Virus record (IMG/VR): IMGVR_UViG_3300009506_000011
Coordinates: 20,187-84,186 of that record
DNA from: a virus
DNA: 64,000 bases
Strand: one strand, 5' to 3'
The position numbers and the translations under genes were made by a program. The notes below the pieces were generated by a model. The model did not search any database. It was given only the letters and a program-made list of their open reading frames with translations, and was not told the DNA's origin. Within the stretch, counting starts at the first letter, position 1. Every line of letters begins with the position of its first letter. Below are positions 1,713 to 62,625 of this stretch, piece by piece.

Positions 1713-2068
1713 GCCACCTCGGTCTCGGCGATCCAGAAGTCGGGCGGGCCGAAGTCCTTGACGCCGGCGGCGGCGACCGCTGCAACAACGCGGCTCCAGC
1801 CGTCCACCGCCGCGTCGTAGCGCTCGCTGTAGGTCACCGGGATGGCGGACACCTGCACCGTTGCGAGGAACGGCACGCCGTCCCTGCCGCTCGCGCCCAC
1901 GGCCAGCCAGAAGCCGGCCAGGTGATACGGCTTTTCGGCATCGATGTAGGCGAGGTAGGCACCGATGCGACTCAGCTCGTCGTCGAGGTCGCTGTAAAGC
2001 TCGTCGTCCTCGTCGTTCAGGTTCTCGATCTTCGCTCCGAAGAGCACCCCATGCGTCATCTGTCCCAT
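1709..2068 (-). CDS. Hypothetical protein (leaderless)
   Basis: ATG lies 7 nt after the -10 of a TTGACT-N17-TAGCCA promoter; coupled to the next gene. Confidence 0.6.
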   Translation of the reverse strand: MGQMTHGVLFGAKIENLNDEDDELYSDLDDELSRIGAYLAYIDAEKPYHLAGFWLAVGASGRDGVPFLATVQVSAIPVTYSERYDAAVDGWSRVVAAVAAAGVKDFGPPDFWIAETEVA

Positions 2069-2104
2069 GGCTAGCTGGCTAGCAAAGGCTAGCTGGCTAG
2101 TCAA
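2069..2104 (-). promoter_or_regulatory. sigma70-like promoter with two GCTAGCTGGCTAG boxes
   Basis: TTGACT(2104-2099)-N17-TAGCCA(2081-2076). Confidence 0.6.
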
Positions 2105-3277: not shown

Positions 3278-3363
3278 TCGCAGCCCGCGGAATCGAACCG
3301 CGACACTTCCCCACCTAAGAAGGACAGTGCCAAGCGCCAAATGCAGGCGCCTCCAGGACTGCG
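3278..3363 (-). ncRNA. Non-canonical tRNA-like RNA (UAG at anticodon position)
   Basis: 7-bp acceptor CGCAGTC/GGCTGCG; T arm CGCGG-TTCGATT-CCGCG; 7-bp D-like stem; long anticodon-like arm with loop CT-TAG-GT; no CCA; upstream promoter. Confidence 0.65.
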
Positions 3364-3431
3364 TGTTGCGCGAGATGAAGGCCAGGCCCTGGTGCCGACA
3401 CTACTCGATGCCGTGTCCGTCGCGCAGATGA

Positions 3432-3492
3432 TCCGTAGCAGGACTCGGCCTGCTAGTCAACTAGCGTTGCCCGTGAAACGCTAGCGTGCTAG
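3432..3492 (-). promoter_or_regulatory. Promoter for the tRNA-like RNA plus GCTAGCGTGCTAG box
   Basis: TTGACT(3460-3455)-N17-TACGGA; 13-mer at 3480-3492. Confidence 0.55.
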
Positions 3493-4097: not shown

Positions 4098-4970
4098 ATG
4101 TCAGCAGGCAACCGGATGATCGAGCTGGGCCGCGTGCTCGCGACCAGCGTTACGCCCACGAACCGAGCGATCCTCGGCAACATCGGCTCCCTCGGCGACG
4201 ATAATACCGGCGATCAGGGCGATATTGGCAACGATGAGCGCTTTTTCACCCATCCCGTCTACTGCCGGCCGCTCGGCCACGTGAAGGAGGAGGACGCCAC
4301 GCCGCTCAACCCGGCGGGCGTCTGCGAGTCGGTCATCATCCGATCGGCGGACGAGGTCTATCCCATCGGCTACCGCGACCTGCGCCTCAGCCGGCTGGTG
4401 AACCCGATCGAAGGCGAGGTGGGGATCGTCGGCTACCAGGGCGGTTTCATCAGCCTGCGGCCGAACGCGGACGGCGACGGGACGAACTTCCTGCTCTACG
4501 GCGCCCGACGGGGAACTGACGGCGAGGTGGAGGCGGCCAGCTCGATCGCCATCGACTCGACCAGCTCTCAGAGGCAGATCCTGCTTCAGCACGAGCTCGG
4601 CCAGACGCTCACGCTGAACAAGGACGGGGGCGTCGTCATGGCCAACGCCGCCAACGACGCTTGGCTTGAGGTGAATCCGGACGGGATCTCGCTGAACGGC
4701 AACACCGCGATCACCGGCGCCGTCCGCGAGGTGACGGTGGGCGATCCGCTGTCGGCGCAGAACGTGGCGCTGGCGCCGGACCTGATCACCTTCGTCCAGA
4801 ACGCCGGCCCGACCTTGACGGCTCTCATGACGGCCGTCAACGTGCTGGCGCCGGGGACGTTTACCCCTGCGCAGATCACGGCCATGGCCAACGCCTTCGC
4901 GCCGTACGTGGCCGCGACAACCGTCCAGTCGACGATCCTCAAGGCATCGCCCTTCCTGCCATCGCCGTGA
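4098..4970 (+). CDS. Baseplate spike/assembly protein (gpV / Mu gp45-like)
   Basis: RDLRL..EGEVGI motif, beta-helix-like repeats, position in the tail module. Confidence 0.75.
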   Translation: MSAGNRMIELGRVLATSVTPTNRAILGNIGSLGDDNTGDQGDIGNDERFFTHPVYCRPLGHVKEEDATPLNPAGVCESVIIRSADEVYPIGYRDLRLSRLVNPIEGEVGIVGYQGGFISLRPNADGDGTNFLLYGARRGTDGEVEAASSIAIDSTSSQRQILLQHELGQTLTLNKDGGVVMANAANDAWLEVNPDGISLNGNTAITGAVREVTVGDPLSAQNVALAPDLITFVQNAGPTLTALMTAVNVLAPGTFTPAQITAMANAFAPYVAATTVQSTILKASPFLPSP

Positions 4971-5182
4971 GCAGCTGCGCCTTCCCGCCGATCCAGCCGC
5001 CAGGCTTCGCGCCGCCGGGCTTGCCCGGCGTGCCGGCGCTTCCGCCGACGCCGACGCCGCCTGACTACCCCGGCCTGCCATTCCCACCGATCCAGCCGCC
5101 AGGCTTCGCGCCGCCGGGCTTGCCCGGCGTGCCGGCGCTTCCGCCGCAGCCGACGCTGGACTGTCCGCTTGACGCGCCGTGA
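4967..5182 (+). CDS. Small proline-rich virion-associated protein
   Basis: GTGA-coupled to the spike gene; CAFPP..CPLD with a duplicated 22-aa Pro-rich unit. Confidence 0.55.
   Translation: MSSCAFPPIQPPGFAPPGLPGVPALPPTPTPPDYPGLPFPPIQPPGFAPPGLPGVPALPPQPTLDCPLDAP
4982..5146 (+). repeat. 66-bp direct repeat, 2 copies (4982-5047, 5081-5146)
   Basis: Copies differ by 1 mismatch; in-frame coding duplication. Confidence 0.9.
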
Positions 5183-39892: not shown

Positions 39893-40081
39893 TCATCCAG
39901 CGTCATCGCTCACCTCGTTCGGATCCCTGAAGCCCAGCGTCGCCAGCGCCTCGCGGATCCTCGTCTTGCTGTTGTCGTTCACGGCGTCGCCCGAGAGGTA
40001 CCGCCGCACCGTCTGCGGCGACACAACCGCCTTGGCGGCGACTCGGACCACGTCATGGCTAGATGTCACATCGGGTTGCAT
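39893..40081 (-). CDS. Small Cro/LacI-like HTH protein
   Basis: VAAKAVVSPQTVRRYLSG; divergent from the repressor. Confidence 0.65.
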   Translation of the reverse strand: MQPDVTSSHDVVRVAAKAVVSPQTVRRYLSGDAVNDNSKTRIREALATLGFRDPNEVSDDAG

Positions 40082-40167
40082 GGTGCCAATTGAGCACAGC
40101 CGGTTAGGGTTGTCAACAGAAAAGTGACTAGTTGACCGCTTGTCCAGTAGTTTGCTAGTATCTGGAC
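40082..40167. promoter_or_regulatory. Divergent promoter / switch region
   Basis: Plus strand TTGACC-N18-TAGTAT-N6-ATG; minus strand TTGACA-N17-TCAATT-N6-ATG. Confidence 0.65.
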
Positions 40168-40512
40168 ATGCCTACCCCCACTCCCCTCGGCCGGCGTCTG
40201 AAGCTGGCTCGGCTGATGACCTTCCCGCCGGTGCCGGAGGCCGGACCGGAGCCGGCGGCTGGCTGGCAACGTGTCAGCCAGCGGGAGCTGAGCCTGATGG
40301 CCGGTCGGTCTGACGGCCTCGTCGGTCACCTCGAAGGGGGCCGGACGAAGGACTCGACGGTTGAAACCACGACGCGGCTCTGCGCGATCCTGGGCATCAC
40401 CACCGACTGGCTCGCCACCGGCAAGCAGCCGGCGCATCCTGGCGGCGGCGAGCTGAACGCCGAAATCGTCAACCACGCCGTGCGAGCCACACGAACGACG
40501 GAGGCGGCGTGA
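40168..40512 (+). CDS. XRE-family HTH repressor
   Basis: LGRRLKLAR..SQRELS..VGHLEGGR..LCAILGITTDWLATG. Confidence 0.85.
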   Translation: MPTPTPLGRRLKLARLMTFPPVPEAGPEPAAGWQRVSQRELSLMAGRSDGLVGHLEGGRTKDSTVETTTRLCAILGITTDWLATGKQPAHPGGGELNAEIVNHAVRATRTTEAA

Positions 40513-42593: not shown

Positions 42594-42803
42594 GTGAAAA
42601 CTACGAGCAACGCGCGTCACGTTGACGTCCCGATGACGGGCACTTTTTGGCGGTACCTGAAGGAGCTACGTCAGCGGCTCGGTACATCGAGCTGGGCGGA
42701 GACATTTCGAGCCGCTGTCCGTGAAGCGGTTGATCGGCGGCGAAGAGAGGACGCTGAGGCAGGTCGTCACCTATCCTTGGTAGGGGAGCCAGAGCAAGAC
42801 TGA
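42594..42803 (+). CDS. Ribbon-helix-helix-like regulator
   Basis: TTGACG-N17-CACGAT-N6-GTG; LKELRQRLG.SSWAETFRAAV. Confidence 0.55.
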   Translation: MKTTSNARHVDVPMTGTFWRYLKELRQRLGTSSWAETFRAAVREAVDRRRREDAEAGRHLSLVGEPEQD

Positions 42804-43999
42804 TGGCCCGCGGCCGCATGCTTCTCAAGTCGCTGAGCCTTTGTGGCCAGCTTGCCGATCTGTCAGACGACACGGCACGACTGCTCTTCTGCATGTGCGT
42901 CCCACACCTTGATCGGGAGGGACGTTTGCAGGGCGATCCCCGGCGTCTCGCGGCGACCGTGTGGCCGCTGCTGCACGGTCCGCAGCCGACCGCACGAGCG
43001 CTGGCGGAGCTCGTTGAGCAGCGACTCGTCGCCGTCTACGACGATGAGCGCGGTCAGACTGTCGTTTGGTTCCCGGCCTTCGAGCGCTCACAGCCTGGGC
43101 TCCGACGGGACAGAGAGGCGGAGAGCAGCTACGGTCCGCCGCCTTCGTGCGAGCCCTCTGGTTTGGTGCCTGCGTGGCTGCGGGAGTACTCCGGACCTAC
43201 TCCGGAGCAATCCCGCGGTGGTCCGGAGTACTCCGGAGTTTTCCCGGAGTACTCCGGACCTACTCCGGAGCAACCCGAGCTAAGTGTTCGAAAGGTGGAA
43301 ACTCCGGAGTTTTCCCGGAGTACTCCGGGAGTGCTCCCGCCTAAATCAAAGGAAAGTAAAGGAAGGGAGGTTGCCGCGCGTGCGCGCGTAGCAACCGCCG
43401 CGCCACCACCACAACAGGAGCAGGCGGTCTGCGAAGGGTGCGACGATATCGCCGAGTGCGGTGCCGATGGTGTGCCAGTGGGATGGGCGGATGGGCTCTG
43501 CCCCGAGTGCCAGCGCCACGACGTGAGCCAAACCGCCGGCTACCTCCAAAGCATCAAGAACCAAGGAGCCAAGCCAGCGCCACCGTCCAAGCTCGGAACG
43601 GCACCCATGAACCCGGTGGCGCGCCAGCTGGCGGAGCATATTAGGACTCACCGGCGCTTCGATGGCATCGACGCTGGCGAGATCGGCAACAGCAACGCTC
43701 ACCTCGTCGAGACGGGTGGCAAGTCGCTAACCTGGCTGAAGGAGGCGATCGACGAGTGCAACCGGGACGCCGGCTCAGCCGCCGCCGCCAGGCGGCCCTG
43801 GTCCGACGATGTCCTCGCGCAGAAGCTTGGTCGCTACCTCTGGAAGGCAAGGCGCCCGGAGCCGAGCGATGCGGGAGAGGAGATCCACCATCACCCCCCG
43901 CTCTTCGTGGACAACGGACCGCGCCCGACCCCGGAGCAAACGCGGCAGTTTGCGGCCGAGGCGCTGGCGAAGTTCCGCGCCGGCAGGAAGGTGCCATGA
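42803..43999 (+). CDS. Phage replication initiator protein
   Basis: MARGRML..LSDDTARLLF..DREGRL.GDP; internal iterons; upstream of DnaB. Confidence 0.75.
   Translation: MARGRMLLKSLSLCGQLADLSDDTARLLFCMCVPHLDREGRLQGDPRRLAATVWPLLHGPQPTARALAELVEQRLVAVYDDERGQTVVWFPAFERSQPGLRRDREAESSYGPPPSCEPSGLVPAWLREYSGPTPEQSRGGPEYSGVFPEYSGPTPEQPELSVRKVETPEFSRSTPGVLPPKSKESKGREVAARARVATAAPPPQQEQAVCEGCDDIAECGADGVPVGWADGLCPECQRHDVSQTAGYLQSIKNQGAKPAPPSKLGTAPMNPVARQLAEHIRTHRRFDGIDAGEIGNSNAHLVETGGKSLTWLKEAIDECNRDAGSAAAARRPWSDDVLAQKLGRYLWKARRPEPSDAGEEIHHHPPLFVDNGPRPTPEQTRQFAAEALAKFRAGRKVP
43182..43339. repeat. Iteron cluster (probable origin)
   Basis: Multiple GGAGTACTCC / ACTCCGGAG palindromic repeats inside the initiator gene. 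Confidence 0.75.
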
Positions 44000-48129: not shown

Positions 48130-48459
48130 ATGAACGCCGAGACGCAGCTGCAGCTCGCCATCCAGAAGGCGCTCGAGTGGCTGCCGGGCGTCAGGGTCTG
48201 GCGCTGCAACACCGGCGCCAGGAAGGGCGGGCGTCTCAAGTTCGGCCTCCGAGATCTGAGCGGCAACGTGGCAGGGACGCCGGACCTGATCGGCATCGCT
48301 TACGGCCGGCCGCTCGCGATCGAGGTGAAGCAGCCGGGGAACGAGCCCGAGCCTCATCAGGCCGTCTGGCTCGCTAGCTGGCGAGCTCTCGGCGGCATCG
48401 GCCTCGTCGTCCACAGCGTCTCGGGGGCGGTGAGGCTGGTGCAGGAGCAACGCCGTTGA
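48130..48459 (+). CDS. VRR-NUC domain nuclease
   Basis: ETQLQ..GTPDLIG..AIEVKQPG..Q..W. Confidence 0.88.
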   Translation: MNAETQLQLAIQKALEWLPGVRVWRCNTGARKGGRLKFGLRDLSGNVAGTPDLIGIAYGRPLAIEVKQPGNEPEPHQAVWLASWRALGGIGLVVHSVSGAVRLVQEQRR

Positions 48460-48491
48460 CTCGTAGGCTAGCAGCTGCTAGGATGCTAGCC
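48456..48491 (+). promoter_or_regulatory. Leaderless promoter with GCTAG boxes
   Basis: TTGACT-N17-TAGGAT-N7-ATG (48492). Confidence 0.65.
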
Positions 48492-50380
48492 ATGATGGTC
48501 CACGAGGATGAGGATGACGAACCGGCGCGGCTCTGCAGCGGCTATTTTCAGAAGCCATATCCTCCGGAGGTGCCGAGATTGGGACCCTGGACAGTCGGTC
48601 AGCGCGTCGTCAACCTGCGTCCGCTGGGTGACATAGTGGCGTTCAAGGGTGCCGTGGGCACGGTGCAGACCATCCTGGACCTCGGAGACGGCATGCTGCG
48701 GCTCTTCGTCGCCTACCCGAAGCTGTACGAGGGCCAGCCCCAGATTGACTACCTGCTCCGGGTGAACGAGCGTTCGACTTTCGTGGCACCGGTCGGAGGT
48801 TGGCCGGCGGAGCTTGAAACGTGAGCGATCTGCCTCATCCCAGGGGATACATCGTCGTCCGTCCGCTGCCCGGTGAGCGGCGGCAGCGCCTGGTCAAGGT
48901 TCGCTGCGAGGTCTGCCAGGAAGCAGCGCCGGCGCCGGATGGTCGGCTGCCCGAGGGTTGGGTGCGGGGGTCGCGGCGCGCCGCGGCGCGCTGTCCAACC
49001 TGTGAGCAGCGCGGTTTGCTGCTGGGGAGGAAGCCGTGACCGAGCGGCCCCAAGTGTTTTGGCGCATCAACGGCTTGCCGCCGGTCCACGAGGCGGCGAT
49101 GCTTCGGCTATTGCGAGGTGAAGGCACAGTGCCGCTCGATGTGCCGCTCGATGTGCTGTCCCACGACTTCGACATGCTCGTTGAGCCAGAGGAGTGCGTC
49201 GACTGCGGCGTCCAGCTCCTCCGAGGCGAGCTGGTCTACCAGCGGCCGCTCGAGGGCTGGATCCCCATCCGCGTTGGTCGCGGCGTTGCGCTGAGGCGGC
49301 CCCGCGCGTGGCTTGGCGGGGTGGCCTTCCCAGGCGTCACAGAGACGGTCTGCGGCTCATGCGCCGCTGCCGAGCTGCTGCCGCGGTACGACGAGCAGGA
49401 GCGCCAGCGCATCGTCGCCAGCGCGCGAGCGACCCTTTCCCGGTCGTGTTGCAATGCGCGAGTCGTGGTCAACGGTATCACCTGGAAAGCGACCGTGCGG
49501 CTTGACCAGGCGGAGTGGCTGATTGCCGCCGTCAGCCAGACCGAGGTGCTGCCGGGTTGCCACCTGTTCGGCTTCGCGCGGTGGACGCCGGACGGTGCTG
49601 AGCTGGACGTAGCAGGCTTGTCTCAGCCGGTGCGGCTCGCACTTGAGCGGGAGCTTGGCTCGAGCTGGAGGTGAGGTGATAAGCGGCTCACGAGCTTGGT
49701 GTGACGGTTGCCGATGCCAGGGCGCTGTGCCGGAGAGCGCGACCGAACCTGATGGCTGGACATGGGCGGACCTAGGCGGCTTCCTACAGGCGCTCTTTTG
49801 CCGATCGTGCTCCAAGGACGGCCGGCTGGGCATGCAGCTGCTGCGCGAAACCGACGCGTGCAAGCGCTGCGGCGGCAGCGGATATCAGCACGCGGTCCTG
49901 TCCACGAATAGCCACCGGTGCGGCTCGTGCGACGGCTCGGGCAGGAAAGCGGCATGAACCAGGACACGGACTTTGCCGCACTCGGAGTCGCGGCCGCGCT
50001 GCTCAGCTTGGTCGGGGATTTGCCGCAAGAGACGGACGAGGAGAAGCGGCTCAAGGCCGTGGCAGCTGACGCGCTCGAGGTCTTCGGCCTAGATCGCGAG
50101 CCGTCCGTCAGCCTCGGCGCGCTCATCGCCCGGGACATCCGCATCGCCCAGGCCAACGTAGCTGGCGTCGAGTGGCACGTCGCCGTGCTCACAGGCGACG
50201 CGGCTCGCGAGCTGGACGCCTGCGGCATCGTCGCGATCGACCGAGCCTATGCGGAGATCACCAAGGGACGGCTGCAGGTCGACGTGTCTCGGTCGAGCGG
50301 CTGTCCGATTGCTCTTGTGGCGGAGGGCGTGCCAGCGGTCGTGCTGCGCGCTCTGGCCAAGGCACTGCGTGGGGAGATCA

Positions 50381-54028: not shown

Positions 54029-55540
54029 GTGATGGCCGCGCCGGCGCAAGCCGACTTCGGCGCCTGGCGCAAGGAGCCGCCCCGGAGCAAGCAGCTCGTA
54101 GAGGTCGGCCAGGAGCAGTTTCAGGCGTGGGTGCCACATCCCGGCCCGCAGCGGATGTTCCTTGCCTGCACGGCGGACGAGGCGCTTTTCGGCGGCGCTG
54201 CCGGCCCCGGAAAAAGCGAGTGTCTTCTGATAGATGCGCTCAAGCACACCCATCATCCGCGCTACCAGGCGCTGCTGCTGCGCCGGACCTACGACGAGCT
54301 CAAGAAGAGCCTCATCCGGCAAAGCGAGGCGCTCTACGACAGGCTGCCAGAAGCGAACCGGCCCACCTACAACAAGAGCGATTACTCGTGGACCTTTCCG
54401 AGCGGAGCCCGGATCGACTTCGCCCACGTCGAGCACGAGAAGGACATCGAGCGCTTCAAGTCGGCGGCCTACCAGTACGTGGCGCTCGACGAGCTGACGA
54501 CCTTCACGCGCCGCCAGTGGGACTACATCAGGAGCCGTCTGCGCTCCGCCGAGGGCATCCCGTGCCGGCTCCGAGCCGGCAGCAACCCAGACGGCCCTGG
54601 ACAGGAGTGGGTGCGGAAGCGATTCGCCCCCTGGATCTACAAGCCAGGCGAGCGGACGGACGAGTACCGCGGCCCCTACGCCAAGCCGGGGCAGAAGCTC
54701 TGGCTCATCCGCGGCGAGGACGACGAGGACGTCGTCGTCCCGAAGGGCACGCCGCACGCCATGAGCCGGACCTACATCCCGGCGCTGCTCACCGACAACC
54801 CAAGCCTCACAGAGAACGACCCTGACTACATCAGCCGCCTCATGCAGCTGGACCGGCCTACACGCGAGGCGCTGCTCAAGGGCAACTGGTTCGCCCGCGC
54901 CGACGCCGGCGACCTCTTCGACCGTGACTGGTTCGAGATCGTGCCGCGCGGCCCTGAGAGCCTCGCCGTCGCTCGCGTCCGCTGGTGGGACCGCGCCGCC
55001 ACCGAGGGTGAGAAGAAGACCAAGAACGACCCAACGAAGGCCGGCGGGCCAGACTGGACGGCGGGGGTGCTGCTCTCCAAGGACCTGTTCGGCATCTGCT
55101 ATGTCGAGGACGTGGAGCGCTTCCAGGGGCCGCCCCACGTTGTGGAGAGGCGCATCGCTGAGGTTGCCGCCGCAGACAAGAAGCGCTACGGCCACGTCAC
55201 CATCGTGCTGGCTGAGGACCCCGGTTCGTCGGGCAAGTTCGAGATCTCCCACTACATGCGCAAGGTGCTCAACCAGTACGAGGCGAGGTCGATCAAGGAG
55301 TCAGGGGACAAGGTGACGCGCGCCAAGCCCGTCTCGGCGCAGGCTGAGCAAGGCAACGTCAAGGTGGTCCAGGGGCCCTGGAATGAAGTATTCCTGCGAG
55401 AAGTGAACAGCTTCCCCCTCGGCAAGAAGGACCAGGTTGACGGTCTCAGCGGCGCCTACTCCGTGGTCGCGCCGGTCGAAGGCAGCTTCGGCGGTGGCAC
55501 GGGCGGCAGCTACGCCTCCGGCCAGACGGGAGGCTACTGA
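54029..55540 (+). CDS. terL: Terminase large subunit
   Basis: FGGAAGPGKS, LDELTTF, SNPDGPG, WDRAA, GDKVTRA, KDQVD. Confidence 0.93.
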   Translation: MMAAPAQADFGAWRKEPPRSKQLVEVGQEQFQAWVPHPGPQRMFLACTADEALFGGAAGPGKSECLLIDALKHTHHPRYQALLLRRTYDELKKSLIRQSEALYDRLPEANRPTYNKSDYSWTFPSGARIDFAHVEHEKDIERFKSAAYQYVALDELTTFTRRQWDYIRSRLRSAEGIPCRLRAGSNPDGPGQEWVRKRFAPWIYKPGERTDEYRGPYAKPGQKLWLIRGEDDEDVVVPKGTPHAMSRTYIPALLTDNPSLTENDPDYISRLMQLDRPTREALLKGNWFARADAGDLFDRDWFEIVPRGPESLAVARVRWWDRAATEGEKKTKNDPTKAGGPDWTAGVLLSKDLFGICYVEDVERFQGPPHVVERRIAEVAAADKKRYGHVTIVLAEDPGSSGKFEISHYMRKVLNQYEARSIKESGDKVTRAKPVSAQAEQGNVKVVQGPWNEVFLREVNSFPLGKKDQVDGLSGAYSVVAPVEGSFGGGTGGSYASGQTGGY

Positions 55541-56170: not shown

Positions 56171-57834
56171 TGGCTCCTCTGTCCTGGGCCGAGCTGCAGA
56201 AGATCATCGTGCCGCGGGAGGTCCCGACCTCCGAGGAGTACCGCTGGTATGCCGGCGCGAATGTCACGCCGCAGCGCATCCAGGAGGTGCTTCGGCAGGC
56301 CGAGTGCGGCTACATGGCGCCCCTCACCGACCTCGAAGACGAGATGCTCATGCTCGACGCGCATGGTGCAGCCGTCGCGCAGAAGCGCATGGCGGCGCTG
56401 CAGTCCCTGCCGTGGTCGGTAACCGCGGCCAAGGGCGAGGGCATCGACGACGGCCTGGCTGAGGAGATCGCCGACGCTACCCGGCGCATGTACGAAGGCA
56501 TCCCGGCTTTTGACGATGCCATCTACAACCAGGCATGGGGCACTTTCCACGCCCGCGCCTGCCACGAAATCCACTGGGACACCTATCCGCGCCGGCCGCA
56601 CTTCCGGCCGCGTGAGCTGCAATGGATCAAGGCGCGCCGTCTGAGCTTCGGCCCCGCGCGGCAGCTGCTCATCGTCGAGCCGTGGTTGGCCCCGAGCGGC
56701 TTCCAGAGCCGAGGCATAGACACTACCGCCTGGCCCTGCCACTTCTGGACCTTCACGCCGAAGCTCTTTGGTGAGTACCCCGAGAAGGAGGGGATCGGCC
56801 CGCGGATGCTCTACTGGATGCTTTTCAAGCGGCTCAGCTGGCGCTGGCGCTTGCTGCTGCTTGAGATCTTCGCGTTGCCGTGGCGAATCGTCAAAGCGCG
56901 ATACGACGCCAATGGCAACCCGATGGCGAGCGCCGACCAGATCAAGGCAGCCGCCGAGATAGTGCAGCGGCTCGGTCTCGACTCGACCGCGTGGCTCGGA
57001 CCCGGCATCGACATCGAAGTGGTCACGGTGGACGCCGCCTCTTCGGACCTCTTCCAGACGACGGGCGCGGACGCCGACCTCCAGCTGAGCAAGATCGCCC
57101 TCGGCAACACCGCCACCACCGAGGGGAACGAGAGCAACCGCTCAAACAGCATCATTCAGCTCGGCTCTGAGGAGCTGCTTAACGCCAAGGACGCGAGCGG
57201 CATGTCGGGGTCAATCAACCGCGACATCGGCATCCCGTTCACCGGCCTCAACTACGGTTGGGACAAGCTCGACCATGCCGCCGTCTTCAAGATCAAGGCC
57301 GAGCCGGCGCGCGATACGACGAAAGAGCTAGAGCATGCAGACAAGCTGCTCAGCATGGGCGCACCCATAGCGCTTAACCAGCTCTACGAGGTTTCCGGTT
57401 GGCGCGCGCCGAACGAGGAACCTTACGTCGTTCGCGGCGGCGATGGCATCGCTCGCGTCGTCGATCCGAGCGCGCCTGCAGCGCCAGAGCCAGAGCGTAA
57501 CCCGGACGATGCCGTGGCCGTCGCCGGTGACCTCGAAGACAGCGGCACCGGTCAAGCCGCGGAGAACGCCGAGGCCGACCTCGAAGCGCTGGAGCGAGCG
57601 AAGGCTCACCCGCAATGCAACGTAGCTCGGGACTGGCTTCGCGAAGAGGGTCTCGATGGGCAGGATATCGAGCGCGCCATTGAGCTGTGCTTGACGGGAC
57701 AAATCCGGCGGCTCGATACCGTACCGATGCTCACGGACGCGGCGGCGAGGCGGCTGAGCATGACGATCATCCCGCCTTTCCGCATCGTGCCGGCGCCAGG
57801 AGAGCCGGCTCGCCCCTTTCTCGGCTGGACATGA
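56170..57834 (+). CDS. Portal protein (DUF935 / Mu gp29-like)
   Basis: LRQAECG..DAH..KR..EIHW..FKR..W..E.F.LP..SKIALGNTATTE. Confidence 0.85.
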   Translation: MAPLSWAELQKIIVPREVPTSEEYRWYAGANVTPQRIQEVLRQAECGYMAPLTDLEDEMLMLDAHGAAVAQKRMAALQSLPWSVTAAKGEGIDDGLAEEIADATRRMYEGIPAFDDAIYNQAWGTFHARACHEIHWDTYPRRPHFRPRELQWIKARRLSFGPARQLLIVEPWLAPSGFQSRGIDTTAWPCHFWTFTPKLFGEYPEKEGIGPRMLYWMLFKRLSWRWRLLLLEIFALPWRIVKARYDANGNPMASADQIKAAAEIVQRLGLDSTAWLGPGIDIEVVTVDAASSDLFQTTGADADLQLSKIALGNTATTEGNESNRSNSIIQLGSEELLNAKDASGMSGSINRDIGIPFTGLNYGWDKLDHAAVFKIKAEPARDTTKELEHADKLLSMGAPIALNQLYEVSGWRAPNEEPYVVRGGDGIARVVDPSAPAAPEPERNPDDAVAVAGDLEDSGTGQAAENAEADLEALERAKAHPQCNVARDWLREEGLDGQDIERAIELCLTGQIRRLDTVPMLTDAAARRLSMTIIPPFRIVPAPGEPARPFLGWT

Positions 57835-58073
57835 CCTACGAGCGCCGGCCAGATCGCCGCTGGCGGAAGGCGGCGCGCAACGCGGTTCGATCGGCGCTTC
57901 GCAGCGGGACGATGAAGCCGGAGCCGTGCAAGCACGCGAGCAGTCTGTGCAGCGGGCGAGTGACGGCGCACCATCACAGCGGCTACAGCCGGCCCCATTG
58001 GCTGGACGTGGTCTGGCTCTGCCGCTACCACCACGCGCTGCAGCACCGACTGGAGCGAGCCACCGGCAGATAG
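57831..58073 (+). CDS. Small HNH-like endonuclease
   Basis: C..C..AHHHSGYSRP..V.WLCRYHH..H. Confidence 0.7.
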   Translation: MTYERRPDRRWRKAARNAVRSALRSGTMKPEPCKHASSLCSGRVTAHHHSGYSRPHWLDVVWLCRYHHALQHRLERATGR

Positions 58074-58192
58074 AAATTCGACAGACGGCTGCGGGGGTTT
58101 TTGACGATCTGTCGACCTATAAGCCGGCTGGCGCTACAACCGCTCAGAAAGAAAAGCGTCTCGTAGCGCCGCCAAGCGGCGCTCCGTCCGAC

Positions 58193-61100
58193 GTGGTGGA
58201 CGAGCAGCTTGTCGCCGGTGAGCTGGCCGCGCTGCGCATGACGAACCAGCTCCTGATCGCCGTCGGCCGCGCCGGGATCCTCGGCGACGTGGCAGACATC
58301 GTGAACCAGGCCGCCGGTTTGGTGGACGAGGCGCCGCTCGTTGATGCCATCTACCTCGCCACCGCGAAGGCCGCGATGCTCGGCGCCGACGACTCGGACG
58401 TTGAAGCAGAGGACGAGACGGTCATCGCGCCGGATCGCTTCGCACGGTGGGGCGGCGGCGCCGGTTGCGGCTGCGGCTGTGCCACCACGGCGGCCGCCCG
58501 TGCACCATCGTGTACCGGATCCAGAACCGCAGCACCGCCTGCTCAGCCGCGCTCAGCCCAGCCTCCCGAGCCCACTTCCTCGCTAGCTCACTTGCCGTCA
58601 TACTCCCTTGATCGCCAGAACGACGCCAACCCGGAAAGCCATCTTGACAGCGCCGGCGTTTTGGCGGATGCTCCCGCTGAAGGGGCGCAAGCCTCTGTCG
58701 TGAACTGCGTAGAAGGAACGGCTCCCCTTGCCAGCGAGCCACCGAACCCGGCAACCGCGCCGGGTTTGGCATTTGTGCTTGACGCGGCGCCGGAGCCGTG
58801 CTCAGCTGACGCTCGCAGCTCGGGGGCCTCTCGCGCTGCGGCCACCGAGCCCAGCCAAAAGCTCGTTGGCGCTGACTCAGAGCTTGAACCCGTAACCGGG
58901 AGCAAACGGGACCCGGCGGCAGGCGCCCCTGCTGAGGTTGCAGCCCCGTCGGGCGTAGACGGAGGCTGCGTCAATTTGGCCCTTGACAGCGCGGAGCCGT
59001 TGTGCTCTTCTACAAGCACGCCTCATGGAGCCATAGCTCGGGGCCGAGAAGCCGGCTTTGCCGGCTTTGCCATTATGGGGGCCTCACCGCCGGTGAGGGT
59101 TGACAGCGCGGCCGAGCCGTGCTGTAATGAGTCGAGCCTTGCCTGTTCGTTGAGCGCCGTTAGCCGTGAGTCTAGCGGCGTTTTTTTTGCTGGCCCCGCC
59201 GGCCGCCCCGGCTCCAAGTCGTTCACCGACGCCGTCCGGGAGTTCCGCAGCCGCGGCGCGGTGACGAGAGACGTCTTCGATGCGATGACCGCGGAGGAGC
59301 GCGCGCGGAGCTTCACGGTCGCTCGCCTCCTCACGAAGGAGAGCGTCGCCGTCGTCCAGGACGAGCTGGCGCGCGCCATCGAAGCCGGGGAGTCACTCCG
59401 CAAATTCCGCGTGAACCTCCGTCAGCGGATGCAGTCGAGCGGGATCGCCATCGCGCCGAAGTGGCGGTCAAAAGGCGACGCCGCGAGCCTCGACGCGCTG
59501 GACGCCAGCCACGTCGAGACGGTCTACCGCAACAGCGTGATGAGCGCCTACAGCGCCGGCCGGGCGAAGCACATGACGCAGCCGCACATCGTGGCGGCGC
59601 GGCCGTACTGGCAGAACATGACGGTGAACGACGGCCCGCCCCGGCAGCGGCCGACTCACCGCGCGGTGCACGGCTGGGTGATGCGCGCAGACGATCCTGG
59701 GTGGCAAGTCACATATGCCCCGCATGGCCACAATTGCCGCTGTAGAACTATCGTTAGATCGGCCGCCTGGGTCGAGCGCAACGGCCCCCGAATGCACTCC
59801 GGTCCGCTGCCGGACCTGCCTGATCCCGGCTGGACCTGCCGTCCACCGCCGGCGGTGGTGATCCCGCCCGAGCCGGTGCCGAAGCCAGACACCAAGGCGG
59901 AGCCGCCGCTGGCGCCACGTCCCTCCCGGGGTTCGAGCCTGCTGCGCGAAGGCGACGAGCAGCTCGACAACGAGACGCGCGCCGCACTCGAGCGGCTCGA
60001 CAGCTACGACAAGGACGAGCAGGGCCAGATCAGCATGCGAGCGCTCGGCTTCATCGAGCCGAAACCGACGGAGCTGGAGCGCATCAAGGAGCTGCTCGGC
60101 GCCCGAGGCGCCGCGCTCGAGCAGCGCTTCGGCCGCGCCATCGCCGAGCCGATGGCCGGCTACGAGATCGCCGCCGGCGCGAAGGTGGACGGCGCTGCCG
60201 CCGCCGAGGCGGCCAGGGCCTGGGATACCGTGCCGTTGCCCCGAGTGCTGCGCATCGGCAACAGCTACCACCTCCTCGACGGTGACGCAGCCGCCGCTGC
60301 CCAGGTGTCCAGCGAGCGGGGTCTGAGCGGCCTCGGCGCCTTGCGAGCGCGCGTTGTCGAGGCGCCCATCAACCGCCTCCCCAAGGCGCCTGCGAGCCGC
60401 GCTGACGCCGTCCGAGAGCTCGGCGAGGCGGCAACCGGCCTGCGGTCCGACCGCGCCTCACAGGCACGCATGCGGCTAGCTCTGCAGGACATACTCCACG
60501 GGGAGGGGATGGCGAGCCGGGACAACCTCGAGACCCGCGAGATGGCTGAACGGATCAGCGTGCTTCGCTCCAACGTCGTCCGCGCTGGCCACGCCTGGAA
60601 CGGCCAGGTGGAGATCGCCGCCTCGGTCCTGGACGAGGCGCAAGCCGGTCTCACCGCCGCGCGCGCCGGCCGGGAGCTGTCGGCGGGTCAGCAGCGCGCC
60701 ATCTCGACCCTTTTCCACGAGGAGATCCACGGCACCTCGCCCATCGCCAGGTCCGCTTACGAGGCGCATGGCGCGGCGCTTGAGGAGGCCGGCGCCGAGA
60801 TCCTCGCCCGACGGCAAGCGCGCAAGCTGCTCGGCTTGCGGAGCGCCGCCGCTGATGAGGCGCTCGGCCTGCCGACGAAGCCGATCACAAGCAAGGTCGG
60901 CGGCGGTGAGATGGCGTACGTCCGCGCCTATGAGGGGCCTGTGTCCAGGCTGCTGGTCACCGTCGGCCGCTACGACGTGAGCGCGGCAGACGTCGAGGCG
61001 GCGCTCGTCCGGATGCGCGCCGCGAGCGCTGCTCGGTTCGAGACGGCGGATGCGTACCTCTCGGGCTTCGTGGCCGAGCTGCCGGTGGCTGAAGCGCAGC

Positions 61101-61705
61101 GGCCGCTGCTAACCCGCCAGCTCAAGCAGGCGCTGCGGTCGACCACGCTGGAGCTGGGTTACTGGCGCGGACACGAGATCCGCAGAGTCGCCGCAGACGC
61201 ATGGGCCTACTCGGACACAGGCGAGTCGGTGTCGTCGCAGCCCGCCCGCGCTTGCGGCCGCTGCGGTGGCGCGGTCACAAGCGAAGGCCACGATGCCTGC
61301 CTCGGCACGCTCCCCGGGGTCATGAACGCGTGCTGCGGCCACGGTCGCATGGCTGACGCCTACGTCCAGCTGAACGATGGGCGCATCCTTCAGGGACAAG
61401 AGGCGGCAAAGTGGATCGCTGGCCATACGGCCACGTCAAAACGCGTACTTAGCGCATGGAGCAAACGCAAAAGACCCATTTCGTGCCAGGCGCGGTCAGC
61501 AGTCTACGAGCTGGAGCGCAACGACACCGCGGGAGCCGTCAGCGTGTTCGAGGCGGCTCTGAGCAAGGCTGAGCCGGCGGAGCTACAGGACCTCGCCCGG
61601 ATGCTGCTCCGGCTGCAGGACAACCCCGAGGCGGCCGCGGAGCTGCTCGACTACTTTGGCGAGCTAGCAGCAGTGCACCAAAGCGACCCCGCGGCTCGCC
61701 TGTGA
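58193..61705 (+). CDS. MuF (Mu gpF / SPP1 gp7-like) head morphogenesis protein with an insertion and C-terminal accessory domains; start uncertain
   Basis: RSFTVA..ETVYRN..AY.AGR..RPYW..RPTH..HG..W..PHGHNCRC; HEEIH..EE zincin motif. Confidence 0.8.
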   Translation: MVDEQLVAGELAALRMTNQLLIAVGRAGILGDVADIVNQAAGLVDEAPLVDAIYLATAKAAMLGADDSDVEAEDETVIAPDRFARWGGGAGCGCGCATTAAARAPSCTGSRTAAPPAQPRSAQPPEPTSSLAHLPSYSLDRQNDANPESHLDSAGVLADAPAEGAQASVVNCVEGTAPLASEPPNPATAPGLAFVLDAAPEPCSADARSSGASRAAATEPSQKLVGADSELEPVTGSKRDPAAGAPAEVAAPSGVDGGCVNLALDSAEPLCSSTSTPHGAIARGREAGFAGFAIMGASPPVRVDSAAEPCCNESSLACSLSAVSRESSGVFFAGPAGRPGSKSFTDAVREFRSRGAVTRDVFDAMTAEERARSFTVARLLTKESVAVVQDELARAIEAGESLRKFRVNLRQRMQSSGIAIAPKWRSKGDAASLDALDASHVETVYRNSVMSAYSAGRAKHMTQPHIVAARPYWQNMTVNDGPPRQRPTHRAVHGWVMRADDPGWQVTYAPHGHNCRCRTIVRSAAWVERNGPRMHSGPLPDLPDPGWTCRPPPAVVIPPEPVPKPDTKAEPPLAPRPSRGSSLLREGDEQLDNETRAALERLDSYDKDEQGQISMRALGFIEPKPTELERIKELLGARGAALEQRFGRAIAEPMAGYEIAAGAKVDGAAAAEAARAWDTVPLPRVLRIGNSYHLLDGDAAAAAQVSSERGLSGLGALRARVVEAPINRLPKAPASRADAVRELGEAATGLRSDRASQARMRLALQDILHGEGMASRDNLETREMAERISVLRSNVVRAGHAWNGQVEIAASVLDEAQAGLTAARAGRELSAGQQRAISTLFHEEIHGTSPIARSAYEAHGAALEEAGAEILARRQARKLLGLRSAAADEALGLPTKPITSKVGGGEMAYVRAYEGPVSRLLVTVGRYDVSAADVEAALVRMRAASAARFETADAYLSGFVAELPVAEAQRPLLTRQLKQALRSTTLELGYWRGHEIRRVAADAWAYSDTGESVSSQPARACGRCGGAVTSEGHDACLGTLPGVMNACCGHGRMADAYVQLNDGRILQGQEAAKWIAGHTATSKRVLSAWSKRKRPISCQARSAVYELERNDTAGAVSVFEAALSKAEPAELQDLARMLLRLQDNPEAAAELLDYFGELAAVHQSDPAARL
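58644..59188 (+). other. Four tandem promoter-like + structured-RNA units inside the MuF ORF
   Basis: TTGAC(A/G) at 58644, 58779, 58983 and 59100 with related spacers, each followed by hairpins. Confidence 0.6.
59153..59188 (+). terminator. Intrinsic terminator inside the MuF ORF
   Basis: AGCGCCGTTAG-N8-CTAGCGGCG followed by T8. Confidence 0.8.
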
Positions 61706-62625
61706 TGCAAATTGCGCGGCTGATACCGTGCGCCTACCCAGTCCTTCCAGGAAACGGTACGATCGAGGCCGCTTGCCACCCAGCGACAAAAGCCTAGCAG
61801 CTCGGGCGTGCGGCGATATGGCATGGGATACGGCGTGACACCGAGGTCCCGCAAGCGCGCACGGCGATAGTCCCTGTCTTCGTGGCTTTCTGCTTGGTCG
61901 TATCCGATCAGCATGTAGGCCATGACGTGACTCGGGCGCACGCCGGCGTCGAGCAGTCGACAAATGCCGCGCGTAACAACAAGCTCATCCTCGCGCCGAT
62001 CCCAAGCCACATAGAGCCGCTTGTCGCGCATGTTGATGGCACGGTAATCAACGCCTGCGATGGCGGCCGCTTGTTCCGCTGCCAGGCTCCTCACGTTGAT
62101 GCCTTGACAGAAGCTGACTCTGAAACCGGCCAGCTCAGCAACACGTTCACGCCAGGCCGACTGCCCGAAAAAATCTGCGTCTAGCAGTATCAAGTGGCGC
62201 GGATGGCATGAACCGCGCCACAGTTCAGGAATGGTGGCAACGGAGCGCGGCTGGCCCTCGGTCCGCGGAACGACGCAGAAGGAGCAGCGTTGGCGGCAAC
62301 CGCGAGATGTGAAGCCCATGGACGGCCCGAACCCCGGATACAGACTCCAGTCGTACCTGGCCTCAAGCTGCTCGAGATTCGCTTGCTCGTCTGCTCCCGG
62401 TCCACCGATTGCTGCATGCGGCCATTGCCGGCGCACTGCCGCTACCAGGGCCCTACTCGTGCTGAAGAGCGATGAGGCGTAGACTCGATCCCACCGACCG
62501 AAAAGCTCTCCGGGAATGCGCCCCCTAACCAAGGTCACCTCGTCGCCACGGTGATGTGCGGCGAGCCGCATCAAAGCGAGGTTCGGGAGTTTCCCATCGA
62601 GCTGCAACAAGAGCACGCGCATCAC
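61651..62625 (-). CDS. Radical SAM protein
   Basis: DGKLPNLALM; TSRGCRQRCSFCVVP (CxxxCxxC); YMLIGY. Confidence 0.88.
   Translation of the reverse strand: MMRVLLLQLDGKLPNLALMRLAAHHRGDEVTLVRGRIPGELFGRWDRVYASSLFSTSRALVAAVRRQWPHAAIGGPGADEQANLEQLEARYDWSLYPGFGPSMGFTSRGCRQRCSFCVVPRTEGQPRSVATIPELWRGSCHPRHLILLDADFFGQSAWRERVAELAGFRVSFCQGINVRSLAAEQAAAIAGVDYRAINMRDKRLYVAWDRREDELVVTRGICRLLDAGVRPSHVMAYMLIGYDQAESHEDRDYRRARLRDLGVTPYPMPYRRTPELLGFCRWVASGLDRTVSWKDWVGARYQPRNLHHRRAAGSLWCTAASSPK

Follow-up and report, generated by a model that had tools for sequence, protein, structure and literature searches.

A head morphogenesis gene of the MuF/gp7 family, carried by a phage from a marine-sediment metagenome, holds in the linker between its N-terminal domain (N-domain) and its MuF domain a segment (58454-59200) that is composed like non-coding DNA, stays open in the MuF frame, and contains four TTGAC promoter-like boxes, a series of predicted RNA hairpins and a canonical intrinsic terminator. 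Positions refer to the window, the 64,000-nucleotide (nt) stretch analysed here, which covers bases 20187-84186 of an 84,186-base pair (bp) IMG/VR phage record with a 144-bp terminal repeat. What we establish here are the anatomy of the segment, its insertion into the gene, the promoter grammar of its boxes, the conservation of its open frame and its modular variation among relatives. We read it, tentatively and with a confidence that stops a little short of even because transcription is inferred rather than observed, as a translated hypervariable MuF linker hosting promoter-small RNA-terminator cassettes, in which ribosomes would mask the terminators on the late messenger RNA (mRNA).

The gene is assigned to the MuF family by a PF04233 match of 67.7 bits (curated cut-off 29.6; E=1.8e-18) over residues 426-559 of its 1209-residue frame, by a match to phrog_220 at E=9e-44, and by its position adjoining the portal gene, with a small HNH gene alone intervening. 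The frame is open from 57926, and the database copy of the protein, P0005 (1169 residues), begins at GTG 58196; no canonical in-frame start is found between 58076 and 58190, the earliest being the GTG at 58193/58196. Judged by its homologues, the segment is a lineage-specific insertion between the two domains, because relatives without it join them through a short linker: only 27-32 residues separate the N-domain from the MuF domain in P0002 (a portal-MuF fusion), in P0003 and in the IMG/VR locus L089. A scan of residues 1-375 of the window protein against 1.8 billion protein representatives returned three relatives. P0001, encoded on a 6.1-kb Logan contig, shares 78% identity with the window protein over the N-domain and 93% over the MuF domain, and carries at the same site, between ..APDRFARW and AGRPGSKSF.., a different insert that is open over 372 codons. 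In the Mu-like phages MP48 and Mushu, the tblastn match to the window MuF domain begins 14-20 residues after their start codon.

Searches of further collections added few relatives. With the window MuF or P0001 as query, IMG/VR yielded the insert-less L089 as the sole close relative, together with distant matches to the C-terminal part or the MuF domain, and JGI metagenome contigs and GTDB genomes yielded no relatives; protein word searches for shorter MuF fragments found nothing, and a search for longer MuF forms recovered just the protein of the window itself and one distantly related portal-MuF fusion. Among the members found in this analysis, a non-coding-like linker insert of 250-370 residues thus appears confined to the window protein, P0001 and metagenome variants, and we know of no described MuF member with an insertion of this size and non-coding composition in the inter-domain linker. 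An earlier note, made from the window sequence, had proposed an insertion of about 750 nt between the N-terminal region and the MuF domain and had expected homologues to reveal its variability; the insert-less relatives, the 372-codon insert of P0001 and the modular in-frame variants described below bear out both points.

In the MuF frame, the GC contents of the first, second and third codon positions (GC1, GC2 and GC3) across 58451-59200 are about 0.70, 0.66 and 0.64, as against a GC3 of 0.84-0.92 just upstream and 0.88-1.0 just downstream of the insert. The same frame contains no stop in 249 codons, whereas the remaining five frames contain 8, 15, 6, 3 and 5; in first-order Markov simulations of the same composition, the chance of such an open frame is 0.005. 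The segment is therefore both non-coding-like and open, as had been noted before. Its peptide is of low complexity, with Ala, Ser, Pro and Gly making up 55% of the residues, and on this composition alone the linker is presumably disordered. We rejected an assembly artefact, as a separate Logan assembly, made from the probable source run, covers 57500-60500 in a single 42-kb contig with zero differences; that assembly was built from the same reads as the record, and thus counts against misassembly without being independent sequencing. No second copy of the segment was found in the phage's own genome, blastn matched the insert to none of the GenBank phages or PLSDB plasmids, and exact DNA patterns taken from box 4, from the second unit (U2) and from the terminator of the fourth (U4) had no match in viral, genome and metagenome collections. 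Imperfect 23-nt direct repeats (78%; ..GGCGGCCGCCC..) at 58485-58507 and 59194-59216, 709 nt apart, bracket most of the insert and may represent junction microhomology or chance in GC-rich DNA.

Four TTGAC boxes punctuate the insert, exactly as first described: three read TTGACA, beginning at 58644, 58983 and 59100, and one, at 58779, reads TTGACG; the spacings of 135, 204 and 117 nt are all multiples of 3, and each box translates as (L/V)D in the MuF frame. The two strands of the 84-kb genome together contain only 17 copies of TTGACA, three of them in the insert and all three as TTGACAGCG. The extended pattern TTGAC-N15-TGCT has 8 matches in the window, where 0.21 would be expected; three are boxes 2-4, and the five others, all intergenic, lie at 2104, 3460, 4080, 40116 (minus strand) and 48456 (plus strand), directly ahead of gene starts or of the transfer RNA (tRNA)-like RNA at 3278-3460. 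Even at the observed genome-wide rate, three matches in 747 nt have a chance of about 4e-6. The shared grammar, TTGACN-N14-TGC-T, written more fully as TTGACN-N14-TGC-TAGnnn for the phage's intergenic promoters, corresponds to sigma-70 geometry, its spacer being 17 bp long and its -10 element extended by a TG, and boxes 2, 3 and 4 conform to it; box 4 is the best sigma-70-like match of the genome, agreeing at 11 of 12 consensus positions in addition to the TG. Furthermore, all four boxes use CTT or GTT, which account for 9.8% of the Leu and 7.4% of the Val codons in the phage's genes. Since these T-ending codons are rare and the residue varies between Leu and Val while the TT stays, selection would seem to act on TTGAC rather than on Leu/Val-Asp. 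At the intergenic promoters 2066-2104 (minus), 40081-40116 (minus), 40132-40170 (plus) and 48456-48494 (plus), an ATG follows about 7 nt later, and because they often run as GCTAGCC-ATG, many phage mRNAs look leaderless.

The boxes are followed by units U1-U4 (Table 1), each with hairpins of its own. The T run at 59183-59190 is the only run of eight in the 84-kb genome, in which runs of six or more number seven over both strands, and it stands behind a hairpin of -17 kcal/mol about 60 nt after box 4, which vindicates the terminator claimed for the end of the array. With its 12-bp stem, U4 has the features of an intrinsic terminator; U1 is a weaker match, and the hairpins closing U2 and U3, followed by only 2-3 T, do not qualify. 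The start site of U4 was placed from the position of the -10 hexamer. The final hairpin of U3 translates as SPPVR, a peptide also present in P0001. Rfam models at E<=10 gave only chance-level small RNA matches (14-19 bits), the best-fitting being Burkholderia ncS01 (17 bits, mainly on the terminator); no tRNA or transfer-messenger RNA was found, and within the phage no target of the U4 seed scored better than those of shuffled seeds (best -37.1 versus -38.1 kcal/mol). In translation the T8 run gives GTT TTT TTT, which makes a slippery heptamer rich in U; beyond it, 26 codons lead to a stop in the +1 frame, whereas 186 codons are open in the -1 frame, and transcriptional or translational slippage there could give alternative products.

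Comparative DNA came as summaries of short metagenome contigs from three other studies (X2, X6 and X11), possibly representing mixed strains. Module A, which precedes box 1, is 86% identical in one X6 contig and absent from another, where it is replaced in frame; one contig has the module with 141 extra bases, and another has 17 bases in its place (net -165). The indels of determinable length (+141, -165 and +9 nt) are all multiples of 3. The borders of the variants (58641, 58783, 58994 and 59201) coincide with TTGAC boxes or with the insert's end, and the X2 relative matches the window up to 58994, in box 3, before diverging. U2 is about 95% identical in the X2 and X11 contigs, without wobble bias, against 86-95% for the flanking coding DNA, and codon position 3 accounts for 2 of the 8 substitutions listed for the insert, compared with 22 of the 32 listed for the flanks (Fisher p=0.04). 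As U2 is at least as conserved as the flanks, and far more so than their wobble sites, constraint on the nucleotides of the insert themselves is suggested, though not proven. In hairpin 58742-58769, relatives show two substitutions that leave the pairing intact, A>G at 58746 and T>C at 58767, and 9 nt inserted next to the loop. The frames in which P0001 reads module A are not those of the window, and the module differs in length by 8 nt, so that the peptide there does not matter. Taken together, these comparisons suggest that the frame is under selection and the amino acid sequence is not. The earlier term 'dual-coded' is thus a fair description, given rare codons, promoter grammar, a terminator and absent wobble bias together with an open frame and in-frame indels.

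Transcription, termination, ribosome masking and any RNA function are our inference from this anatomy, and the mechanism we favour would run as follows. Translated within MuF, the insert would serve as a spacer of low complexity in which Ala, Ser, Pro and Gly abound, so that selection would keep it free of stops and its indels in frame, while its DNA would comprise three or four cassettes built like the phage's other small-RNA genes, each running from a phage-type promoter (TTGACN-N14-TGC-T...) through a structured RNA specific to the unit to a hairpin that closes it. In the U4 cassette, a near-consensus promoter would lead into the genome's strongest intrinsic terminator about 60 nt on. Transcripts from the internal boxes would have neither a ribosome-binding site nor a usable start codon; lacking the former, they would fold and terminate as short RNAs, of about 56 nt in the case of U4. 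Late mRNA arriving from upstream would be translated through the open frame, its ribosomes blocking the terminator hairpins and full-length MuF being made. The dedicated antitermination that had been thought necessary would not be required, because ribosomes translating the open frame could themselves mask the terminators. Cassettes would be exchanged between related phages by recombination at the common promoter boxes, and the likeliest targets of the RNAs would be host mRNAs or host defence systems.

Several observations pull the other way. None of the sequencing runs listed as containing this DNA is an RNA run. Box 1 lacks the TGC element. Compared with a -10 hexamer whose second base is A and whose sixth is T, those of boxes 2 and 3 (TCAGCT and TCTTCT), and likewise that of box 4 (TGTAAT), are without the A, which only box 1 (GATGCT) has; the accepted intergenic phage promoter at 40116 (TCAATT) also does without it. 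The hexamer of box 2 is altered further in relatives (58803 C>T, 58804 A>G). A canonical terminator ends only U4, and weakly U1, and U2, the best-conserved unit, folds no better than shuffled sequence. The substitutions listed are all transitions, which easily keep G-U pairing, so that their support for the structures is weak, and the comparative DNA consists of nothing beyond the contig summaries, perhaps of mixed strains. Finally, boxes 2 and 4 form hairpins of their own, 6-10 bp long and with G-U pairs possible only in plus-strand RNA, and the (L/V)D-x5-C spacing is kept in the P0001 protein; the boxes may be an RNA hairpin or a peptide motif instead. The promoter-like character given to the boxes in the earlier note accordingly holds for boxes 2-4 in terms of the phage's own grammar and falters at the missing TGC of box 1 and the poor -10 hexamers of boxes 2 and 3. 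The other features stated in that note, the hairpins and the terminator of U4 among them, are all present where it placed them; the folding z-score of U2 is -0.6.

Degeneracy of this kind in box 1 and in the -10 hexamers of boxes 2 and 3 is also what one would expect of a tolerated relic, that is, of a stretch of phage intergenic or regulatory DNA, such as promoters, small-RNA genes or part of a gene, captured in a permissive linker by illegitimate recombination, in which only the open frame would be selected and the signals would be decaying fossils. We consider this explanation unlikely, while taking it seriously. The flat GC profile and missing wobble bias fit neutral drift, module A resembles a gene fragment, with a frame not kept in P0001 and absent in one variant, and the length and content of the insert vary widely between relatives. 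Neutral DNA, however, should match the divergence of wobble sites, yet U2 is about 95% identical in two other studies whose flank wobble sites are far more diverged; P0001 keeps four or five boxes with exact D-to-C spacing; and only 60 nt separate the genome's best promoter match from its best terminator, which would be unlikely for decaying DNA. If the cassettes are relics all the same, the linker of a head gene would still tolerate hundreds of residues of essentially random sequence. As for module A itself, a minus-strand open reading frame (ORF) starts in it and runs from 58601 down to 58425 (59 residues, MTASELARKW..LRFWIRYT..), with a strongly periodic GC3 and, just ahead of its ATG, an AAGGGAG box; this ORF is probably the relic of a captured gene, and we rejected it as a confident gene on account of its having no Pfam or PHROG match, no promoter of the phage's type and a frame not kept in P0001.

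We find it decidedly doubtful that the segment is a regulatory region of the late operon, with the tandem promoters and the U4 terminator acting as an attenuator or booster for the MuF domain and the DNA downstream, and the short RNAs arising as by-products. Every box is oriented as MuF is, and in the lambda PR'-tR' layout a strong promoter likewise has a strong terminator close behind it (PMC7547250). Yet MuF closes the run of plus-strand genes, the next gene being convergent on the minus strand, and therefore little lies downstream for regulation; no in-frame start codon occurs between the terminator and the conserved MuF domain; the units are swapped or missing in relatives; and a PHROG scan of 20 ORFs, in itself a weak negative, turned up neither an antiterminator nor an RNA polymerase.

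Improbable, too, is a purely protein-level repeat, in which a disordered linker would be all there is, (L/V)D-x5-C(S) would be a peptide motif serving, for example, as a protease site or Cys-based contact, and the DNA signals would be incidental. The motif does lie in one frame in all four copies here, the P0001 insert carries four or five VD-x5-CS copies with the D-to-C spacing of the window boxes, and the reading frame is kept open, although the shared frame is weak evidence, because only two of the three frames avoid a TGA inside TTGAC. A peptide motif accounts poorly for rare T-ending codons in four of four boxes, for a residue before Asp that is Leu or Val while the TT stays, for the same DNA pattern marking five intergenic promoters, and for a flat GC3, without wobble bias, that is unlike every confident gene of the phage.

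The phage encodes a type IV-B (Csf) operon with a Cas6-like gene and without a CRISPR array, and the units had accordingly been proposed as guides or decoys for the Csf complex. Type IV-B complexes have been found on heterogeneous non-CRISPR RNA (PMC7937560), and therefore no specific signature is to be expected. In a broad version of the reading favoured here, which we regard as a long shot, the tolerant linker of a head gene that is essential would be a landing pad for exchangeable small-RNA cassettes, silenced by ribosome read-through and made when untranslated, that supply hypervariable counter-defence or host-control RNAs, possibly loaded into the array-less complex; were such loading true, the complex would gain its long-missing RNA partners. 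Units that are specifically guides or decoys for that complex, or Racr-like mimics of a host CRISPR repeat, we credit even less. Viral solitary repeat units often lie just after a promoter (PMC10651486), and the G-U-containing hairpins of boxes 2 and 4 would suit such a role. But only two of the four boxes form such a hairpin, and, if promoters, the boxes lie outside the RNA they drive. No Rfam CRISPR-DR family matched, even at E<=10. In place of the near-identical repeats at about 55-75-nt spacing that define a CRISPR array, the boxes are 79-92% alike over 12-24 nt and irregularly spaced by 117-204 nt, and no CRISPR array was found anywhere in the 84 kb. Nothing in this analysis supports the Csf link. 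Least credible of all is removal of the segment by a group I/II intron, intein or other splicing to give a mature MuF without it, as had also been envisaged: the insertion does interrupt a conserved gene adjoining an HNH endonuclease gene, but no intron family matched at E<=10 in 57500-60000 (Rfam covariance models), no intein/Hint domain is present (Pfam gives only PF04233 in the whole ORF at E<=0.01), and a spliced element would need neither a frame open over 249 and 372 codons nor in-frame indels. PHROG profiles found nothing on 58076-59200.

Phage morons are promoter-gene-terminator cassettes between late-operon genes of lambdoid and Mu-like phages. The units resemble them as self-contained, variable elements in the late structural region, exchanged at conserved boundaries, and differ from them in that morons lie between genes and usually encode protein, whereas the units stand inside an ORF, in frame, with no plausible protein of their own. 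ORF-internal small RNAs are known from bacteria, for example FtsO within ftsI, and rlmD int and mglC int with internal promoters (PMC7815308); there, as in the candidate described here, one DNA serves a part of a protein and a separate small RNA, in some cases with its own promoter in the ORF, and nucleotides are conserved beyond the need of the protein. Those are single RNAs in well-conserved coding sequence of normal codon usage, in contrast to three or four predicted cassettes in a hypervariable insert. U4 also shares with the lambda PR'-tR' 6S RNA and with StxS a strong promoter, a close strong terminator, a late-region location and, by prediction in its own case, a short RNA, which in those systems is itself able to regulate (PMC7547250); PR'-tR' is upstream of the late genes, non-coding and read through by Q, whereas U4 lies in a translated frame, and a Q-like protein was not among the 20 ORFs mentioned above. 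With RNA anti-CRISPRs and viral solitary repeat units, the likeness is to small, variable, promoter-driven non-coding units, often near structural genes in Mu-like phages (PMC10651486), and the difference is that their CRISPR-repeat similarity was not found here by Rfam and that the units here all differ. Within the MuF/SPP1 gp7 family (PF04233), which includes portal-MuF fusions and variable C-terminal domains, the protein has an ordinary N-domain and MuF domain beside the portal, and departs from the family in its linker insertion. As far as the sequence can tell, an array of full promoter-terminator units and an in-frame hypervariable non-coding-like insert in a structural gene are combined in none of these systems.

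If the cassettes are expressed, they would form an array of complete transcription units inside a translated gene whose frame is open there only for ribosomes to pass through terminators, a compact way of hiding accessory RNA genes without breaking an operon, and one that gene callers would never report. They would widen the moron concept, from units between genes to units within them, offer a concrete viral case of translation-dependent terminator masking, and add candidate regulatory or anti-defence RNAs to a lineage with tRNA-like RNAs, ribozymes and an array-less CRISPR-derived complex.

Table 1. Features of the inserted segment, the MuF gene and its neighbours (positions in the window)
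Feature	Coordinates	Strand	Evidence
Terminase large subunit	54029-55540		
Mu-type portal, Portal_Mu PF06074	55948-57834		Pfam
Small HNH endonuclease gene, between portal and MuF	57828-58073	+	phrog_2340 endonuclease, E=2e-11
MuF/gp7-family head morphogenesis ORF	58196-61705	+	PF04233, phrog_220, database protein P0005
MuF N-domain, ends ..VIAPDRFARW	58166-58453	+	GC3 0.84-0.92; homology to P0001, P0002, P0003, L089 (E=5e-9)
Inserted segment, non-coding-like composition, open in MuF frame, in place of a linker of ~30 residues	58454-59200	+	composition, stop counts, homologues, modular variants
Module A, GC periodicity out of phase with MuF (GC 0.9-1.0 at coordinate%3==0)	58496-58601		
Box 1, TTGACA-N17-GATGCT, degenerate, without TGC element	58644-58672	+	
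U1 body, long hairpin 58675-58736 and terminator-like hairpin 58742-58769, T-rich tail	58675-58769	+	z=-3.7; terminator scan
Box 2, TTGACG-N14-TGC-TCAGCT, exact grammar match	58779-58807	+	
U2 body, ends in hairpin 58940-58969; best-conserved unit among relatives	58808-58982	+	z=-0.6
Box 3, TTGACA-N14-TGC-TCTTCT, exact grammar match	58983-59011	+	
U3 body, hairpins 59048-59068 and 59082-59098	59012-59099	+	z=-2.0
Box 4, TTGACA-N14-TGC-TGTAAT, exact grammar match	59100-59128	+	
U4, predicted RNA of ~56 nt: ~17-nt single-stranded 5' part, 12-bp hairpin 59152-59183, T8 tail	59135-59190	+	z=-4.0; terminator scan
MuF domain (..GRPGSKSFTDAV..), coding-type composition back	59201-59800	+	GC3 0.88-1.0; 93% identity to P0001

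The gene order around MuF differs from that of its relatives in a further respect. L089 has the portal gene and then directly MuF, and P0002 and P0006 are portal-MuF fusions; by this comparison, the HNH gene is a second lineage-specific insertion at the portal-MuF spot. The C-terminal 630 residues of MuF (59801-61705) are without a Pfam match and include the HExxH-like motif HEEIH. A Cys-rich module at residues ~1030-1110 of the 1209-residue frame would qualify as a widespread phage domain, because about 80 IMG/VR loci match it at 40-60% identity. In the convergent gene after MuF (61651-62625, minus strand), a CxxxCxxC-like motif is accompanied by a faint match to radical-SAM (E=0.03). Elsewhere in the window, an iteron-like array of GGAGTACTCCGG-type 21-nt repeats at 43183-43340, in or beside the replication-initiator gene (42803-43999), is probably the origin of replication, and a small ORF (4967-5182) holds a perfect direct repeat of about 60 nt, 99 nt apart, at 4988-5135.

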